A stretch of 64,000 nt of DNA from an uncultured Holophagae bacterium (GCA_963801995.1 CAWDGW010000012.1:78940-142939); one strand, 5' to 3'. Positions 823 through 56,340 are shown, counted from the first letter of the stretch. Notes: generated by a model not told the origin, from the letters alone. Translations and numbers: made by a program.

Positions 823-1232
823 AAATCGCCATCCCCGTCGCAGATGGTCGCCTGACGCCTCACTTCGGCCGCTGCAAAGAAATCGTCATCGTTGAAGCGG
901 ACTTTGCAGAACGGCGGATTGTCGGTGTGCAAAACCTGAAACCGCCCACACACGCGCCCGGCGCGCTGCCCCGCTGGCTGGCCAATCATGGGGCGAACGT
1001 GATCATCGCTGGTGGGATGGGCCAGCAGGCCAGGGAGATATTCACCAAGAATGGGATCTACGTCGTCGTGGGGGTACCCTCCGAAACGCCGGAGACGCTG
1101 GTTGCCGAATATCTCGACGGGATCCTGGCAAGCGGCGAGAACAACTGTGATCACGACAGCAGTGAGCCGAGCAGCGGCCAGTCCGGTCGCCAACATCGCT
1201 CGGCAAACCACCGAGGCCCAACATTGTGGTGA
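819..1232 (+). CDS. NifB/NifX family Fe-Mo cofactor-binding protein
   Basis: MKIAIP...PHFGRC...VIIAGGMG motifs; ATGA overlap with upstream ORF. Confidence 0.9.
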   Translation: MKIAIPVADGRLTPHFGRCKEIVIVEADFAERRIVGVQNLKPPTHAPGALPRWLANHGANVIIAGGMGQQAREIFTKNGIYVVVGVPSETPETLVAEYLDGILASGENNCDHDSSEPSSGQSGRQHRSANHRGPTLW

Positions 1233-1242
1233 GGAGGACAAC

Positions 1243-2493
1243 ATGAGTTCAGAAGCGGGGCACTACGCGGCCCAACCAATCCTCTCGGCGGCTTGGCGGG
1301 CCATGCCGCCCGCAATGCGAAACACGGTGACCTCGGCCCCGGTGATTCCTCAGATTGCGGCCAAGGCCAAGGTCGCCGCAGCAGCGAATCCTGGATTCAT
1401 CCGTGGCGACCAGGGCCAGGTGGTCGATGTCATGCCGGGCCAGGAGGTGTACTACGGCCCATCCTCGGGCCTGCCGGAACTCCGTCGTCTGGTAGGCCGG
1501 TTCTGGACGCTGGCGTACGGACTCCAGGGCTGCGAGGGCCTATCCAATAACGGTCTCGGTTCCGAGCACGTGGCCATCGTATCCGGGGCCACGGAAGGCA
1601 TCGCCATCGTCATGCGGTTGCTGGCGCCCGGCCGAACCGTCGGGGTCCAGAGGTACTTCTGGGGCAACTACCGCAACATCATCGCCCATGCCGGCGGCGA
1701 GGTCGAGGTACTGGATTTCTTTGCGGACGACGGGAGCTTCGACCGAGCCGGCCTCGCCTCGGCCATTCAGTCGTCAGACATCCGCACCCTTCTCGTGAAT
1801 TTCCCGGCCAACCCCACCGGTGACCTGCTTTCCGATGACGAGCTGGCGGCGCTCGCAGATCTCGCCAGGGACCTCGATCTGACCTTGATTTCGGACGAGG
1901 TCTACAACTGGATCCGGTATGACGACGCGCCGCGGACCCTGCTGACCTTCGCGCCCGAGCGGACCGTTGTCGTCGGCGCCGCATCCAAGGAGTACCTGAT
2001 CCCGGGTGCTCGGACCGGCTACGTGCTGAGCGCTGACGCCATTTTCAGCGGTGAATGGATGCCCCGCCTGATCCGATCCACGTCGTCGTCGCCCAATGTC
2101 CTCGGCCAACGCCTGGCAATCGAGATGCTGGAGGCCGACGTCGCGGATCTCGAGGCCGGACGGACTCCGGCCATCCTCGGCGCCATCAAGGAGGAGCTGC
2201 GGCGTCGCCGAGACGCCATGGTCGAAATGCTCCTATCTTTGGGTTTCGAGGTCGTGTCGCGCCACGGCGGCGTACCCCAGGGGGGAATCTCGCTGCTCGC
2301 GCGACTTCCAGAGGGCGTCGAGGACGACCTGGCCATCATCGATACCGCCATCAATATGGGGAGGTTCAGCGCCATTCCGGGAAGTGCGTTTGGTGCGCCG
2401 GGCTGTATCCGCTTCGGCTATGCGGGGATCCCGCTCGAGGGCATCGATCGGTTGGCGAAGGCGATTCCCGAAGTCCTGATCGCCGTGCGGTGA
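1243..2493 (+). CDS. PLP-dependent class I/II aminotransferase
   Basis: NFPANPTG, ISDEVY, SKEYLIPGARTG motifs; GAGGAGG RBS before ATG at 1243. Confidence 0.9.
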   Translation: MSSEAGHYAAQPILSAAWRAMPPAMRNTVTSAPVIPQIAAKAKVAAAANPGFIRGDQGQVVDVMPGQEVYYGPSSGLPELRRLVGRFWTLAYGLQGCEGLSNNGLGSEHVAIVSGATEGIAIVMRLLAPGRTVGVQRYFWGNYRNIIAHAGGEVEVLDFFADDGSFDRAGLASAIQSSDIRTLLVNFPANPTGDLLSDDELAALADLARDLDLTLISDEVYNWIRYDDAPRTLLTFAPERTVVVGAASKEYLIPGARTGYVLSADAIFSGEWMPRLIRSTSSSPNVLGQRLAIEMLEADVADLEAGRTPAILGAIKEELRRRRDAMVEMLLSLGFEVVSRHGGVPQGGISLLARLPEGVEDDLAIIDTAINMGRFSAIPGSAFGAPGCIRFGYAGIPLEGIDRLAKAIPEVLIAVR

Positions 2494-2592
2494 CTGTTCG
2501 TGGGGCGTCGCCCCCGGACCGACCAGGAGCCGAATCCGCCGAACTGCTGTTCTGATCTGCTCCGGGGAAACAACCTTCATCCAGGTTGTGGA

Positions 2593-4749
2593 TCACTCGG
2601 CCTGAAATCCAAGCGGAAGCTTCTTGAATCGGCCGCCGTAGACGATCGGGTCGCCCTCGTAACCGAGCTTCTTGAAGTCGAGGTAGTCGGTCCCTCCGAC
2701 GAGCCCCCCACATCGCGGCCCTGCCTCAGCAGGTGCTTGAAGTCCATGCCCTTTTCGGACAGGGCCCTGAAGTCCGTACTGCGGTTGCCCTGATGACAGC
2801 GGTCGCAGGTACGCTCGCCCTTGAGGCTGGGGTGGCAATGGGCGCACGAAAGCGCGAACTCCTTGGGCATGACCTCGTGCTCGATGCGCCAGTACATGTC
2901 CGTCCGGACCCAGATGTACTCGCCGCTGTAGGGTAGTTCGGCCTTCTTCATGCCCTCGGCGAAAGCCTTCTGCCAGTCCCTGACCTTCCAGTAGGCGGTC
3001 TGGTCGTGCTCGTCGTAGGGAAAGAGGTGCGGCACCAGCAGATAGCGGTGCTCGGCGTCGGCCGGCTGGATGCCGCCCATCACCTTGAACGGCGTGATCT
3101 TCGAGTTGGGGTCCATGATCGATCCCACGGGCTCGGTGATGTGGGTGACCACGAGCGCCATCTTTCCCTGCAGGCTCAGCGACTCGCCAGGCTTGAAGCC
3201 CTTGGCCTCGGGGTTGATCGTGTCGCCGAGGAGCAGCCGCCTCGTGTAGCCGTTGAACCAGGCATACTCGGGCTTGGCCGACTCGCGCCGCCTGAACGAA
3301 CCTTTCTTCCACTCGTAGTCCGGCTTGCCGTACTTGTCGTTCTTGATCAGGCGCTCGGTGTCGCCCGCCGTGGACCAGTCCCACCAGACCTTGGTGGGAG
3401 CGCACTTGGCGTACACCGGCGAGTGGCAGGTGTTGCAGGCGATGGTCGCGCAGTGCTTGTTCAGATGATGGTCGAGCAGCGTGTCTCCGTAGTGGGGCTC
3501 GGCGGTGTGGCAGTCCTCGCAGGCGTGCGAGCCTTCGGTGACGCACACGGAGGTGCTGCGGCCGGCGATCTTGTGGTTTCGAGTCTCGTGGCACTCGGTG
3601 CACCGGAAGTCGTAGCCGCCCATGTGCACGTCGCAGTCACGGTCCGGCCAGTTGAGGGTCTCGGACATGTCCCCGTGCTTGACGGCGTCCCCACCGCCGC
3701 CGCTGAAGTGGCAGTCGCCGCAGCGTCTGACGGCTGGTTCGGCCGACGTGTTTGGCCACGTAGACCAGGTCGACCTCGGGCGCGGGCATGCCCGCCCCTG
3801 TCGGGGCCTTCATGTAGCTGCCGGTGGTGTCGTGGCACACCAGACAGTCGACTCTCGTTTGGTCCGTGAAGTCGAACGTGGCGTCCTTCCATCCGTATCC
3901 CGCATGACATGATGTGCAACGAGCCTCGTTGCTGATGGGGGAGATTCAATAGTTGTTGAGCGCCGTGGTGCTCTTGCCGCACCCGACGCTGCTTCTGTGC
4001 TCCACGGTATAGCGGGACGGCCCCTGCCATAGCCAGTGCGCGCTGGCGACCATGTCACTGCCCGCATCGTCGTGGCAGCGCAGGCACTCCTGCGTCACCT
4101 GCATGGGCGTGGGATCTGGTGGCAGATTCACCAGCCTCTCATGGTCGGGCACATTCTTCGTGTGGCACCCCTCGCACGCGACCGGGCCCATCTCCATGTC
4201 TTCGTGGCAGCCCATGCACTGCATGTGGTAGGCCGCCTTGAGGCCGATCCTCCCTTGGCGCTCGGGATTGAAGGCGTCCTGATGACAGGCCTTACAGGCC
4301 ACCGTCTCGGAGGCGTTCGCGTCCGCCGGCCGGTAGTGGTGGCAGGCCGCGCAGTCGCCGCCCAGGGCCGCGGCGTGCCGCGAGTGCATGAATCGCACCG
4401 GGCCATACGTGTCCCCGAAGGTGTTCACAAAAGGGCTTTCGAGCCACAGATAACTGTGCTCGATGTCCGCGGTTCCCAGTCCGATTCGGCGCAGGCGCTG
4501 CTGTCTGAGGAGAAGATCCTCCATCAGGACATCCTCGACAAAGGCCGGCGTCCGGCGGGAAAACTCGACCGCGGCTGCCTGTTCTGGAGCAACCCATCCT
4601 TCGGGTTTGGGGTGCTTGTTCGTGCGGACTTTGTCAACCGGCATGGCGTTCGCTTTGGAGACCGTGGCCGGCAACGTGTGAATCACCACGACCGCCAGTG
4701 CGAACACGGCGACGGCGGTTGCCAGGCCGTAAATGTAATGTCTTTTCAT
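2593..4749 (-). CDS. multiheme cytochrome: tetraheme c3-like domain fused to octaheme tetrathionate reductase (Otr) family domain (several frameshifts)
   Basis: 13 CxxCH motifs across frames; Otr-like HWLWQG, NNxC, GGGGDAVKHGD, NHKIAG, HEVMPKE segments; N-terminal hydrophobic signal. Confidence 0.85.
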
Positions 4750-15035: not shown

Positions 15036-15039
15036 AAAA

Positions 15040-15308
15040 AATTCGGAATTCGGAATTCGGAATTCGGAAAACCTATCTCGACCGTTGAGCTGTGCAGGCG
15101 AGACGCCCGCACCACAATTGAGCCCGGCCAACTCGGCGTGGTGATCCCCTTGTCTGCACCCTCCACACCCTCCACGCTTTCCACACCTTCCACCCCGGGC
15201 GGGCTGGACCTTTAAACCTTTAACCTTTAAATCTCTTTAACCTTTAAAGTCTGACCGAAACGCACCACAACCCTTGCCCCGGAACTTTCAACTTTCAACT
15301 TTCAACTG
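15040..15308. repeat. stacked short tandem repeats and REP-like half site
   Basis: (AATTCGG)4, TGCAGGCGAGACGCCCGCACCACAA, (CACCCTCCA)n, (CCTTTAAA)n, (AACTTTC)3. Confidence 0.9.
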
Positions 15309-19071: not shown

Positions 19072-19291
19072 CTGCGTTCCCTCCAGAAGTAACTTCCTGT
19101 GGAACGGGAGTGTAACGCGGGGCAACGGACCTGCCAAGCACAACCTTCCTTGATCGGGATGCTTGTAAAAAGGGTGCAGAAGACCCTCGCCCACCCAACT
19201 CGAAATGCGAAATGCGGAAACCGTTCTCGAGGGCCGCAGCGCGTTTTGAAGTCGTTTTTCGAATTTCGAATTTCGAATTCTCCGTAACTGC

Positions 19292-26180: not shown

Positions 26181-26279
26181 GGGAATTCGATCGAATTCGA
26201 AATTCGAAATTCGAAAACCATGCTAGATCGTTATAAGGTGATATGATGCCAGACGGCGTCCGCGCCGAGGGAGGCCCTC

Positions 26280-31721: not shown

Positions 31722-32141
31722 ATGGAGTTGACACCAGAAGTCGTGCAGCGCCTGGTGGCGGCTGCCGCCAAGGTCCGCGACCGAGCCCATGCCCCCTACT
31801 CGCGCTTCTGCGTCGGTGCTGCCTTGCTGCTCTCCAACAACGAGTTGATCACAGGCTGCAACGTGGAAAACGCCTCGTTCGGGCTCAGCGTCTGCGCTGA
31901 ACGCAACGCGGTGGCGGCCGGGGTGGCCGCCGGAACCACTTCCTTTCTGGCCTTGGCCGTGGTGACCGACACGTCCCCGCCGTCCAGCCCCTGCGGCGCT
32001 TGCCGCCAGGTCCTGGCCGAGTTCGGTGACTTTCCGGTCATTCTGGCGAACACAACCGGCGAACGCCGGATGACGAGCGTCGCCGAACTGCTGCCTCGGG
32101 CATTTTCGGGCACCGCCCTTCCAAACCGCGTTAAACGTTAG
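31722..32141 (+). CDS. cdd: cytidine deaminase
   Basis: APYSRF.VGAA, GCNVEN, CAER, PCGACRQ. Confidence 0.95.
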   Translation: MELTPEVVQRLVAAAAKVRDRAHAPYSRFCVGAALLLSNNELITGCNVENASFGLSVCAERNAVAAGVAAGTTSFLALAVVTDTSPPSSPCGACRQVLAEFGDFPVILANTTGERRMTSVAELLPRAFSGTALPNRVKR

Positions 32142-33000
32142 GCTCATCCGGAATTCCGTGAGGTGGTGGATGACAGCGACCAGGGACAGATTCAGCTGAC
32201 AGCGACAGGGGCCGGTGGCGGCGTCAGGTGACGGCGACGGCGTCAGAGTTGGACGGGTGCGGGCTACCGGGGATTGAGCAGTCGCCATGTCATGGCACGC
32301 ACCTCATCGAATCCCTGCAGGACCTTCTCCGCCCCGGTTCCATTGACGGCACTGGCAGCAGCAAGCAGTCGCAGGTGGCTGTCGACCTCCTTGGCCGAGG
32401 CGTAGGCGATCCGCCAGTGGTGCTGGCGATCTCTCCCGGATCGGCCGTGCCCTTCCGCTAAGTTGGCGGGGACCGAGCTGGCCGACCGGATCAGCTGATC
32501 GGCGATGGACTTGAGCGGAGCCGGAACTCTCAAAACCAGCGTAATTGCGATGCCTGCTGCTTCGAGGGCTTTGGTGTAGGCCACGAGATTGGTGTTGCTG
32601 ACGGCTTTGGACATGGTCACCTCCGGGTCGTTCATGCCCTTCAACAAGCTGCCAGGGAGGGCGGAGGGGCTGGCAGGGGGGCCTTGGAGATGGCACGACG
32701 AATTGTGGTGCGGCCGTCCCGGCTGCAAGACTCGGCCGTAAGGTCAGCAGGCCAGAGGCCCGCACCACAATCTCCCCCCTGCCAGCCCCTCCGCCCTCCC
32801 TGGCAGCTATCCGTCCCCGTCCCATAGAACGACCCGGAGGGGGCCATGCAGCCGCTGCACATCTGATCGCTGCCTCTGCCCCGGTCGCTGACCACAGTCG
32901 CTGCCCGCTGTTTCCTGCCCCCGTCGCTGCATCCTGACCCTGCCGCTGGGTTCGGGAACGGAAACAGCAACACCCGACATCACGCTTTCCCGGATGAACC
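32141..33000. mobile_element. non-autonomous ISL3-like cassette carrying a four-helix-bundle gene, copy 1 (860 bp)
   Basis: TIRs GGCTCATCCGGAATTCCGTG / CACGCTTTCCCGGATGAACC; AAACGTTA directly repeated at 32133-32140 and 33001-33008; no transposase. Confidence 0.8.
32264..32614 (-). CDS. four helix bundle protein (23S rRNA IVP/Avd-like)
   Basis: DQLIRSASSVPANLAEGHGR...IAYASAKE; GGAGG RBS. Confidence 0.92.
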   Translation of the reverse strand: MSKAVSNTNLVAYTKALEAAGIAITLVLRVPAPLKSIADQLIRSASSVPANLAEGHGRSGRDRQHHWRIAYASAKEVDSHLRLLAAASAVNGTGAEKVLQGFDEVRAMTWRLLNPR

Positions 33001-33130
33001 AAACGTTAGAAGTTACTGGTTAAACGTCGGCTGGCTCGCACTGCACAACGTCAGACGTTAAACGTGTGACCTGTCACGTGTCACATGTCACTCCAGATCC
33101 TTCAGCCGCTTCGGGCCGGCGGCGGCTGAC

Positions 33131-33159
33131 TTGACACGATCCACCGATGACCCCATATT
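33131..33159 (+). promoter_or_regulatory. sigma-70-like promoter
   Basis: TTGACA-17 bp-CATATT. Confidence 0.65.
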
Positions 33160-33164
33160 TGAAG

Positions 33165-33280
33165 TGTCCCTAGGGATCGCGGGTGTTCAACGGACTTCAC
33201 AGCCGCGATACAAACTGAAGAAGCCCGGGTGGGCATACCCACCGCGACGAAATCCCGCTTCACGCGGGGTTTCGTATTTC
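33165..33280 (+). ncRNA. candidate small structured RNA (Acido-Lenti-1-like hairpin)
   Basis: ATCGCGG...GGACTTCACAG-CCGCGAT stem, GGTGGG-CATA-CCCACC hairpin, terminator-like hairpin 33247-33275; family name is from memory only. Confidence 0.55.
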
Positions 33281-33377
33281 TGGGGTCGTAGGGGGAATCT
33301 CGGCGGTTGGAGATGGTTGCGCAATTCGCTCCTCGAATTGCGATATTTTCTTTTCAGACTTTTCCTCTTCGCGTTGG

Positions 33378-33995: not shown

Positions 33996-34039
33996 GTGAA
34001 CCCATTGAATCGAATTGCGCCCCCAAACCCGCCCTCCCA

Positions 34040-34180
34040 TTACGAATTGCGAATTGCGAATTCAGCCCTCTGGGACCGGGAGAGATGACACAGGATCATC
34101 TGGACCGATGAGACAAACCGGGACGACCTCGACGATCTCGGACGCCGACAATTCGTAATTCGCAATTCGTAATTCGCAAT
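34040..34180. repeat. inverted pair of heptamer tracts
   Basis: TTACGAATTGCGAATTGCGAATT and its approximate reverse complement AATTCGTAATTCGCAATTCGTAATTCGCAAT ~90 bp downstream. Confidence 0.85.
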
Positions 34181-35773: not shown

Positions 35774-35890
35774 GCCCATTCCAAATTCCAAATTCCAAAT
35801 TCCAAATTCTCGACTAGCCTGATTGGCGTCAATGGGCTAGAATAACCGGCCGGTGCCGCCTCTCGACGGCACGTGAAGGAGAATTTCCAG

Positions 35891-43503: not shown

Positions 43504-44353
43504 GGCTCATCCGGGAAAACGTGAGGTGGGGGTCGATCGATTTCGGACTTCACAACGGCACCCGCCCGCCCGAAGAGGAACCGCGGCTTCATCCGCGGAG
43601 ACAGCAATCAGGGACAGCGTCAGAAACCAGCGGCAGGGACCCGCGGCAGCGTCAGTTGACAGCGTCAGTATCGGAGAACCGGGCGCGCTCAGATGGGATT
43701 GAGCAGGCGCCACGTCATCGCACGAACTTGGTCGAAGGTCTCCAAGGCGTTCTCTGCCCCGATTCCATTGACTGCACCAGCGGCGGCGAGGAGTCGCAGG
43801 TGACTGTCGACCTCTTTGGCCGAGGCATAGGCGATCCGCCAGTGGTTCAACCGGTCTCGTCCAAACCGGCCGTGGCCTTCAGCGATGTTGGCCGGGACCG
43901 AGCTTGCCGACCGGATCACCTGATCGGCAATCGATTTCAGAGGAGCGGGAACCCTCATAACGAGCTTGATGGCGATGCCTGCCGCTTCAAGGGCTTTCTG
44001 CTGGGCTACGAGATTGGTGTTCGTGACGGCTCAGGACTGGTCACCTCCGGGTCGTTCATGCTCACCCGAATGCTGGCGAGGGGGCCGGTGTCAAGGGTTT
44101 GCCGGCCTTTGGCCGGCCGCATGGCGCCCTTGACACCGGCCCCCTCGCCAGCTATGCCCATTCACCCCGTGAACGACCCGGAGGTGACCATGTGCAATGC
44201 GGCCAAGACAACTGATTGCTGCCGCTGAAGACTGGTTACTGTCCCTGCTCGCTGTTCCCGGTCGCTGCCCCTGACTGCTGTCGCTGCCGCTGAATTTCGG
44301 GTACGGGAACGGGAACGGCGGGAACTTCAACCACACGTTATTCCGGATGAACC
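43504..44353. mobile_element. non-autonomous ISL3-like cassette carrying a four-helix-bundle gene, copy 2 (850 bp)
   Basis: TIRs GGCTCATCCGGGAAAACGTG / CACGTTATTCCGGATGAACC; same architecture as copy 1; no flanking duplication. Confidence 0.78.
43689..44038 (-). pseudogene. four helix bundle protein, 5' end damaged
   Basis: 75/89 aa identical to copy 1 by manual alignment; ATG reads AG and codon 3 is TGA; could restart at ATG 43958. Confidence 0.75.
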
Positions 44354-46447: not shown

Positions 46448-46467
46448 AACCTCACCGGTCAGAGTCG

Positions 46468-46597
46468 AAAGTTGAAAGTTGAAAGTTTGAACTCGAAGGT
46501 GGACGGTTGTTCGTTCGCTGGGGTGGATCGATGGATGGTGTGGAAGGTGTGGAAGGTATTGAAGGTGTGGAGGGTGTGGAGGGTGTGGAGGGTGGAG
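46468..46597. repeat. heptamer and nonamer tandem repeats
   Basis: (GAAAGTT)3 and (GGTGTGGAR)~6; reverse complements of the tracts at 15156-15308. Confidence 0.88.
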
Positions 46598-51513: not shown

Positions 51514-51539
51514 AAGCCCGGGGAGACCCGGGCTTTTTT
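51514..51539 (+). terminator. intrinsic terminator
   Basis: AAGCCCGGG-GAGA-CCCGGGCTT-TTTT. Confidence 0.85.
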
Positions 51540-51691
51540 AATTCGGAATTCGGAATTCGGAATTCGGAAAACCGTCCTCGATCGAACGGCCGGGAAATCG
51601 GCCGCGGAACCAATCGCCCCGTTCGCCGTTAACACAATTGTCTGCCACGCGTATTTGATGTTGAGCGAAGGCCCGGTGACCGGGGGACGAA

Positions 51692-56231: not shown

Positions 56232-56322
56232 AATTGCAGATTGCAAATTGCAAATTGCAAATTTTGACCGGCTTTCCCGTGCGACATGAGAATTTTCAAT
56301 TTTCAATTTTCAATTTTCAATT
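56232..56322. repeat. heptamer tracts between the two RND genes
   Basis: (AAATTGC)4 and (AATTTTC)4. Confidence 0.9.
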
Positions 56323-56340
56323 GGGAGGTCGGGTGGTGGT

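Follow-up and report, generated by a model that had tools for sequence, protein, structure and literature searches.

A transposase-free, ISL3-like cassette whose only cargo is an IVP gene in an uncultured Holophagae bacterium

The cassette between cdd and trmH

We analysed a stretch of 64,000 nucleotides from an uncultured Holophagae bacterium (GCA_963801995.1 CAWDGW010000012.1:78940-142939), hereafter called the window, in which an element of 860 bp (32141-33000) lies between a cytidine deaminase gene (cdd, PF00383) and a SpoU-type methylase gene (trmH, PF00588). Coordinates without a contig name refer to the window, and C1, C13 and so on are contigs of the genome of origin, G000, an assembly of 5.16 Mb in 17 contigs with 63% G+C that is 94.5% complete. 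A preliminary description of this DNA had presented the element as a member of a mobile cassette family that lacks a transposase, ends like an ISL3 insertion sequence and carries a single four-helix-bundle gene. Our results support that reading, which was largely right. The element is inserted, with an 8-bp target duplication, into a heptamer tract at the cdd stop codon, and about a hundred copies are present in this genome.

The element starts with GGCTCATCCGG... at 32141 and closes with ...CCGGATGAACC at 33000. On both sides it is flanked by a perfect 8-bp duplication, AAACGTTA (32133-32140 and 33001-33008), so that inverted-repeat boundaries and identical flanking 8-mers are visible in the sequence, as had been reported. 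The span first assigned to the cassette, 32133-33008, lies in the right region and includes both duplications, which are not part of the element itself. The terminal inverted repeats are imperfect: 15 of the first 20 positions agree when read by eye, and a repeat search returned inverted arms of 31 nt (77%) with the duplicated flank counted in. The left duplication overlaps the 3′ end of cdd. Since the last two bases of the duplication and the first G of the element rebuild the TAG stop codon, the deaminase is unaltered.

PF05635 proteins (IVP/S23p) are among the commonest genes of "function unknown" and are multicopy in scattered lineages; the ORFs of rRNA intervening sequences, where such genes were first discovered, are named after them. 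The only open reading frame (ORF) of the element with a family match (32267-32617, minus strand) encodes such a protein, matching PF05635 with an E-value of 1.6e-15 and 57.6 bits (cut-off 33.8) and TIGR02436 with 58.1 bits (cut-off 24). GGAGG stands 7 nt before its ATG, and use of an alternative in-frame ATG 21 nt upstream would give a protein of 123 aa. No sigma-70-like promoter for the gene was found within the element. As five further ORFs overlapping the element had no Pfam match above cut-off, the term "transposase-free" stands, and so does the statement that a 116-aa four-helix-bundle protein is the sole gene product. The AlphaFold2 model of this protein has four helices and a mean predicted local distance difference test (pLDDT) score of 94.6. 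In Foldseek, its closest matches were two uncharacterised S23-family proteins, 2gsc (template modelling (TM) score 0.82-0.87) and 2rld (TM 0.77-0.86), ahead of Avd (4dwl, TM 0.78-0.83, ~10% identity; Avd chains of 8ub7 also matched). PADLOC matched no defence-system family.

The whole genome contains 73 PF05635 matches. Of the 56 near-full-length copies of the IVP gene, 31 retain an ATG start and an uninterrupted frame. The other 25 are broken: three have a stop at codon 52, five are disrupted otherwise and 17 carry an identical three-change 5′ variant in which the ATG is gone and a stop stands at codon 3 (for example C12:122634, C13:170208 and C17:955801). Because this start-less variant is spread over the gene tree and does not form one clade, it suggests exchange between copies.

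The IVP cargo is under purifying selection. Among 53 copies, the pairwise Nei-Gojobori ratio of non-synonymous to synonymous substitution rates (dN/dS) was 0.11-0.22 in all six bins of dS, including 0.22 at dS <0.05; these figures and the omega values that follow may be distorted by gene conversion and biased mutation, and do not tell whether the host or the element benefits. Changes seen in a single copy comprised 38 synonymous ones, 40 non-synonymous ones and one stop; relative to 87 synonymous and 246 non-synonymous sites, this gives an omega of 0.38. Copies outside the start-less group gave 0.34 (35 synonymous versus 34 non-synonymous private changes), and the start-less group gave 0.83 from very few changes (3 versus 7). 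Purifying selection on the coding sequence shows that the passenger is not junk, and the data suggest that it is retained by selection and not as a passive load.

The gene is enclosed by two arms of short repeats in opposite orientation. In the 42 copies with a gene, the arm 3′ of the gene contains CAGCG 206 times in forward and once in reverse orientation; in the outer 150 nt of the arm 5′ of the gene, the counts are 0 forward and 250 reverse. Autocorrelation of the arm repeats peaks at lags 6 and 13. A mirrored copy of the ribosome-binding-site/ATG region surrounds a hairpin upstream of the gene (Table 1), an arrangement also present in a copy from G064, a genome of a different genus. When the element was folded as RNA, its ends and arms paired at -461 kcal/mol against a mean of -383 for 20 shuffles (z -7.8), as expected of any element with long inverted arms.

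The centre of the window hairpin (32664-32791) is a nested palindromic insert that is absent from most copies, where BLASTN joins query position 564 to 693. Its core is a hairpin repeat of ~70 nt (ATTGTGGTGCGG...CCGCACCACAAT), which the window copy and a few copies close to it contain 5′ of the IVP gene. The same repeat forms 110-bp tandem arrays of about eight units at C4:296261-297170, with similar arrays on C3, C7 and C17. An Rfam search of the element gave sub-threshold microRNA-like matches on the long hairpin, far under the gathering scores, and we rejected these as chance products of the palindrome.

Copies, target sites and distribution

The preliminary description had predicted further copies with the same ends and consistent 8-bp duplications, and both were found. 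BLASTN of the element against G000 returned 324 matches at 149 loci, some of which consist of the nested hairpin alone. Exact matches to the 11-nt terminus number 138 in the genome and 6 in the reversed genome, and a degenerate 20-nt terminus, with one mismatch allowed, is found at 143 sites (70 + 73) compared to 0 in the control, so the family is no product of chance. When neighbouring termini that face inward were paired, 72 two-ended copies emerged, 269-937 bp long; 42 of them contain an IVP match that spans 100 aa or more, 20 a partial match and 10 none. Arrays aside, the similarity of dispersed copies reaches ~97% at best, with a median best match of 94%. At C13:149999-150865 lies a copy with 97.1% identity to that in the window.

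Perfect 8-bp duplications flank 21 of the two-ended copies, and 18 more have duplications with one mismatch (39/72). When flanks of different elements were re-paired as a control, 1.2% were perfect and 5.3% had one mismatch, 6.5% in total. Perfect duplications also flank copies with little or no gene, such as C13:126475-126800 (326 bp) and C5:359287-359704, indicating that the ends suffice.

Some cassettes are not dispersed. Head-to-tail arrays of four lie at C1:33375-36431 (~810 bp each) and C3:183949-185916 (~500 bp each), with 5-6 bp between termini. The window itself holds a second cassette (43504-44353), whose IVP gene has the start-less 5′ variant. It is flanked by two different heptamer tracts and has no duplication, which suggests that copies have recombined or that the cassette was inserted between neighbouring tracts.

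It had been cautioned that the duplicated 8-mer at cdd is part of a heptamer tract. This proved correct and extends to other copies. The 39 sites with good duplications share the target N-A-A-(C/A)-(G/T)-T-T-N, with A at positions 2-3 and T at positions 6-7 in 36-38 of them and an AT fraction of 0.71, and the pattern repeats each seven bases on either side. At other copies whose flanks we read, deletion of the element and one 8-mer brings the tract back in phase. As the duplicated 8-mer lies within such a tract, the caution points to the target itself, namely AT-rich heptamer tracts.

AT-rich heptamer tracts abound in the intergenic DNA of this genome. Tracts of three or more units number 984 for period 7, compared to 121-295 for periods 5, 6 and 8; those of period 7 have a mean G+C of 0.40, and only 13 of the 984 adjoin an element end. 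The commonest unit is AATTCCG (215 tracts). Three such units occur 256 times in G000, 234 times in G001, 99 in G012, 16 in G007, 8 in G004 and 0 times in 26 other relatives. The terminal repeat of the cassette itself includes CGGAATTCCG. We also considered inverted pairs of heptamer tracts as general borders of gene cassettes and rejected the idea: pairs more than 250 bp apart hold housekeeping genes, and the common units are near-palindromic.

The cdd-trmH locus lacks the element in five relatives, four of the same genus (G001, G002, G005 and G006) and one of another (G011). An unoccupied heptamer tract lies at the position of the element in G001, and matches in G004 and G007 have the same spacing as those of the five relatives in the match table. 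Since these relatives are ~70-80% identical in DNA, the comparison reveals a locus without the element and not an exact empty site. Of the empty allele that had been anticipated, the absence of the element was thus observed, and the single 8-mer was not obtainable at this divergence.

Across the order, the terminus pattern has a patchy distribution and occurs in 13 of 81 sampled genomes (143 times in G000, 43 in G004, 33 in G100 and 30 in G064) and is absent from 68. The closest IVP genes in reference genomes, at 80 loci, have 66-81% identity and labels that include Thermoanaerobaculia and Candidatus Sulfomarinibacteraceae; our survey was confined to genes in this range of identity and to one phylum. 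The strict terminus was present on both sides of 6 of 81 such IVP genes, on one side of 16 and on neither side of 59. With a looser motif, 13 of 80 genes had it on both sides, 40 on one and 27 on neither. Where a match stood at the expected distance, the protein of the locus was mostly one of the most similar.

A more distant genome has twelve loci at which the gene occurs together with CAG-type arms, some with 13-mer arrays of about twenty units. We read the flanks of ten of these and found no such terminus and no heptamer tract. G000 itself has six divergent PF05635 genes outside the terminal-repeat family (Table 1), each between short tandem tracts with a gene-specific unit; in five of the six, the tracts upstream and downstream of the gene are reverse complements of each other. 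As the module of gene and arms is also found free of ISL3 ends, carriage by ISL3 accounts for its amplification in this lineage alone. The proposal that ISL3-driven spread underlies the scattered expansion of these genes therefore holds among close relatives but not more widely, as 59/81 IVP genes have no terminus.

Near the element, the region 5′ of the SpoU methylase gene (33131-33290) contains a promoter-like TTGACA, 17 nt, CATATT, and then a leader with 84-87% identity across the genus, a conservation far above that of its surroundings. The leader had no family match in an Rfam search.

Table 1. Features of the cassette, other heptamer tracts and cassettes in the window, and divergent PF05635 genes of the genome
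Feature	Coordinates	Strand	Evidence
Left target duplication, AAACGTTA	32133..32140		Sequence, flank comparison
Left terminal inverted repeat	32141..32178	+	Comparison with G064 ISL3 end
Left arm, 3′ of gene, CAGCG-type short repeats in a single orientation	32166..32263	+	Repeat counts
IVP gene, 116 aa and stop	32264..32617	-	Profile matches, model
Mirror copy of ribosome-binding-site/ATG region, 22-nt arms, 91% complementary, around hairpin	32612..32848		Repeat search
Long hairpin, 35-nt perfect arms	32647..32808		Repeat search
Right arm, 5′ of gene, complementary CGCTG-type repeats	32849..32975	+	Repeat counts
Right terminal inverted repeat, inward GGTTCATCCGGGAAAGCGTG...	32963..33000	-	Terminus search
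Right target duplication, AAACGTTA, then remainder of heptamer tract	33001..33008		Sequence, flank comparison
Second family member, 850 bp, IVP gene on minus strand	43504..44353		Terminus pairing
Heptamer tracts in the window (examples)	15039-15070, 15282-15308, 19256-19280, 26193-26217, 34039-34063, 35777-35810, 46463-46488, 51539-51570, 56233-56323		
Divergent PF05635 genes	C4:275035-275337, 286582-286829, 288640-288954, 298442-298747, 302863-303177; C17:218794-219105		

Link to ISL3 transposons and competing explanations

An ISL3 transposase is present in 10 of 61 genomes of the same family. At locus L017 of G064, a complete ISL3 insertion sequence (IS) occupies positions 948-2250. Its transposase (403 aa) matches NF033550 (ISL3) with 291 bits (cut-off 180), its ends start with GGCTCATCCGGGAA..., and its flanks, GAACGTTT and GAACGTTG, lie within a heptamer tract. 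The left end of the window element corresponds to the right end of this IS, over the last transposase codons: ~26 nt agree with one indel, and GTGGATGA, further inward, is common to both. Other ISL3 elements of the bacterial family likewise have ends that start GG(C/T)TCATCC, and in the congener G007 an ISL3 element within a heptamer tract is flanked by TGAATTTT, a perfect 8-bp duplication. The ends of the L017 element and the duplications at G007 and at the cassette copies agree with the ISL3-like character first attributed to the element, that is, ends starting with GG and AT-rich duplications of 8 bp.

An IVP element adjoins the IS of L017, with its gene at 2504-2878 and an end at 3186. Positions 948-3186 thus hold an intact ISL3 and a one-ended IVP element side by side, with only heptamer tracts between them. 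As its outer ends face each other, the pair might in principle be mobile as a single unit.

We consider it likely that the element at cdd is a non-autonomous ISL3 derivative, a mobile insertion cassette with a PF05635 passenger, and that it was spread by a transposase supplied in trans. Under this model, the cassette would have lost its own transposase gene and kept both terminal repeats on which an ISL3 DDE transposase acts, and the passenger module would be the PF05635 (IVP/S23p) gene between inverted CAGCG-type repeat arrays. An autonomous ISL3 with matching ends would provide the transposase, which would cut at the repeats, and insertion would occur through an 8-bp staggered cut, preferably into the N-A-A-(C/A)-(G/T)-T-T-N sites of intergenic heptamer tracts. 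We infer that a transposase of the L017 type would have moved the copies in G000.

Several observations weigh against this interpretation. In G000, PF01610 has a single match, a fragment of 171 aa without its N-terminal part and with stop codons (C14:432678-433190, locus L001); it is cut off directly at a heptamer tract, after which comes a run of CCCGAGN heptamers. This fragment is of a different ISL3 subgroup from the L017 element; it is 77% identical to an ISL3 of the congener G004 that has different ends, and 32% identical to the L017 transposase. Among the two-ended copies, 33 of 72 have two to six mismatches between their flanks. Copies with a gene (42, plus 20 with a partial one) outnumber the 10 without, the opposite of what is usual for a dispensable passenger. 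Finally, the IVP module with its arms also occurs outside any ISL3 shell.

Beyond the known fragment, a tblastn search of G000 with the L017 transposase gave nothing below E 0.3, so the cognate partner is absent from this 94.5%-complete, 17-contig assembly. No terminus was present at the contig ends. Pairs of termini 1-5 kb apart, taken as candidate autonomous copies, had poor extended ends, and no autonomous copy was found in G000. The autonomous ISL3 with the same ends that the preliminary description envisaged was thus found, with nearly the same ends, in a related genus (G064), but not in G000. With no intact matching transposase and dispersed copies at most ~97% alike, the family looks dormant in G000. 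The window copy is probably no longer mobile there, and its partner has presumably been lost or lies in unassembled sequence.

Among other explanations, the copies might have spread by segmental duplication or recombination and not by transposition. The head-to-tail arrays on C1 and C3, the 33 copies without a clean duplication and the scattering of the start-less variant, with the exchange between copies that it suggests, fit such a process. However, the dispersed copies have unrelated flanks, sharp ends and duplications at a frequency (39/72 with at most one mismatch) that re-paired flanks do not approach (6.5%). These duplications refute segmental duplication as the main mode and leave it as a secondary process at most; as an account of the family, we regard it as highly improbable. 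Another explanation assigns the IVP protein to the mobility machinery, either as a cis-acting helper, which might for example bind the arms to assemble or protect the transposition complex, or as the mover of the module itself. The purifying selection at all levels of divergence and the majority of gene-bearing copies would be expected of such a component, and the ~5-6 strictly oriented repeats per arm recall the homopentameric state of structural relatives described in passages of PMC4990558. IVP genes with inverted arms also occur without ISL3 ends in G000 and a distant genome, and the same passages attribute to Ralph and McClelland (1993) the suggestion that the ORF of an intervening sequence is a mobility component. 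Yet the protein, a 116-aa four-helix bundle, has no match among nuclease or recombinase families, perfect duplications also flank derivatives without the gene, and the 17/56 start-less copies and the three copies with a stop at codon 52 nonetheless lie at different loci. As the ends and the 8-bp duplication are also typical of a DDE ISL3 element, we think it decidedly unlikely that IVP belongs to the mobility machinery.

A further possibility is that the true unit is the IVP gene with its inverted arms, a putative RNA-level module resembling an rRNA intervening sequence, to which ISL3 ends were added late and locally, with no effect other than its amplification in this lineage. The paired ends and arms in the folded element RNA (z -7.8) are consistent with this idea, but such folding is general to elements with long inverted arms. 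Divergent IVP genes of G000 lie between tracts that are reverse-complementary in 5/6 cases, the distant genome has arms without terminal repeats, and the S23p ORF of a 23S rRNA intervening sequence is reported in passages of PMC4990558 to be preceded by heptameric GACAGAT repeats; however, the 23S rRNA gene of G000 has no such insert. We find the idea plausible without holding it to be the probable case. Moreover, an RNA-level module is compatible with ISL3 mobilisation in G000 and bears on origin and function alone. For the spread of the cassettes in G000, a transposase acting in trans on ISL3 ends is the explanation that we prefer.

As to what the protein does, a Xanthomonas relative of IVP is reported to be homopentameric in passages of PMC4990558. 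By analogy, our guess is that IVP may be a pentameric scaffold that binds nucleic acid, on the arms or on an RNA stem, and that this might aid retention of the cassette or the host. A broader scheme would join this guess to the evolutionary history. The IVP gene and inverted CAG-periodic arms would constitute an ancient, self-contained selfish module, the free-living form of ORF-bearing rRNA intervening sequences. A pentamer would bind the roughly five repeats of each arm, as DNA or as an RNA stem, and this binding would be needed for spread or retention; the module would then have been packed between ISL3 ends in an acidobacterial lineage and amplified about a hundred-fold, with heptamer tracts as landing pads. 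We judge it unlikely that all these parts hold together. If they did, rRNA intervening sequences would be such cassettes inserted in helix loops, and a thirty-year-old question about their origin would be settled; in the passages of PMC4990558 that we used, the old hypothesis that intervening sequences are transposon remnants is so far only a conjecture.

Carriage by ISL3 ends would tie the enigmatic IVP gene family to an ordinary cut-and-paste transposon. With dozens of IVP genes in one genome, in a shell that has clear transposon ends, target duplications and an identifiable transposase family, at least one bacterial order provides a concrete, testable vehicle for these genes. Rebuilding the cassette for assay in a laboratory strain is feasible and offers a handle on the function of the IVP protein.

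Comparison with known systems

The modelled IVP protein is predicted to have the same four-helix-bundle fold as Avd of diversity-generating retroelements, at ~10% identity. Unlike the setting of Avd, no reverse transcriptase lies in or next to the cassette, whose neighbours are cdd and the SpoU methylase gene.

The cassette resembles 23S rRNA intervening sequences with an S23p ORF, our source for which is part of PMC4990558 alone. Both have a protein of the same family and an ORF within stem-forming inverted sequences, and short CAG-containing tandem repeats stand upstream of the ORF in one such intervening sequence (PMC4990558). A 23S rRNA intervening sequence is excised by RNase III, according to the same passages. 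The cassette has transposon ends and target duplications, for which we saw no report in intervening sequences, and unlike these it lies outside rRNA genes: the single 23S gene of G000 (C1:6613-9625) measures 3013 nt against 2925 model positions, and 0 of the 149 element loci fall inside it.

With ISL3 insertion sequences, the cassette shares ends that start GG(C/T)TCATCC and AT-rich duplications of 8 bp. It differs from them in having no transposase and in its size, 0.3-0.9 kb compared to ~1.3 kb for autonomous elements.

Mobile insertion cassettes, such as MIC231 from IS231, and MITEs (miniature inverted-repeat transposable elements) derive from insertion sequences. Like mobile insertion cassettes, the element described here has IS ends, no transposase, a passenger gene and duplications of the length made by its parent, and mobilisation in trans would be a further likeness. 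Unlike known mobile insertion cassettes, it has an ISL3 parent and, for a cassette with a gene, a very high copy number (in 5.2 Mb, 143 termini and 72 copies with two ends). One cargo occurs throughout, under purifying selection and within inverted short-repeat arms, and insertions are targeted to a defined 8-mer of heptamer tracts. In the literature that we searched (main texts, with few subscription journals), we found no report that ties the IVP protein family to ISL3 or to mobile insertion cassettes. Thus, although the category is known, the ISL3 parentage, the copy number, the uniform and selected cargo, the repeat arms and the target are new.

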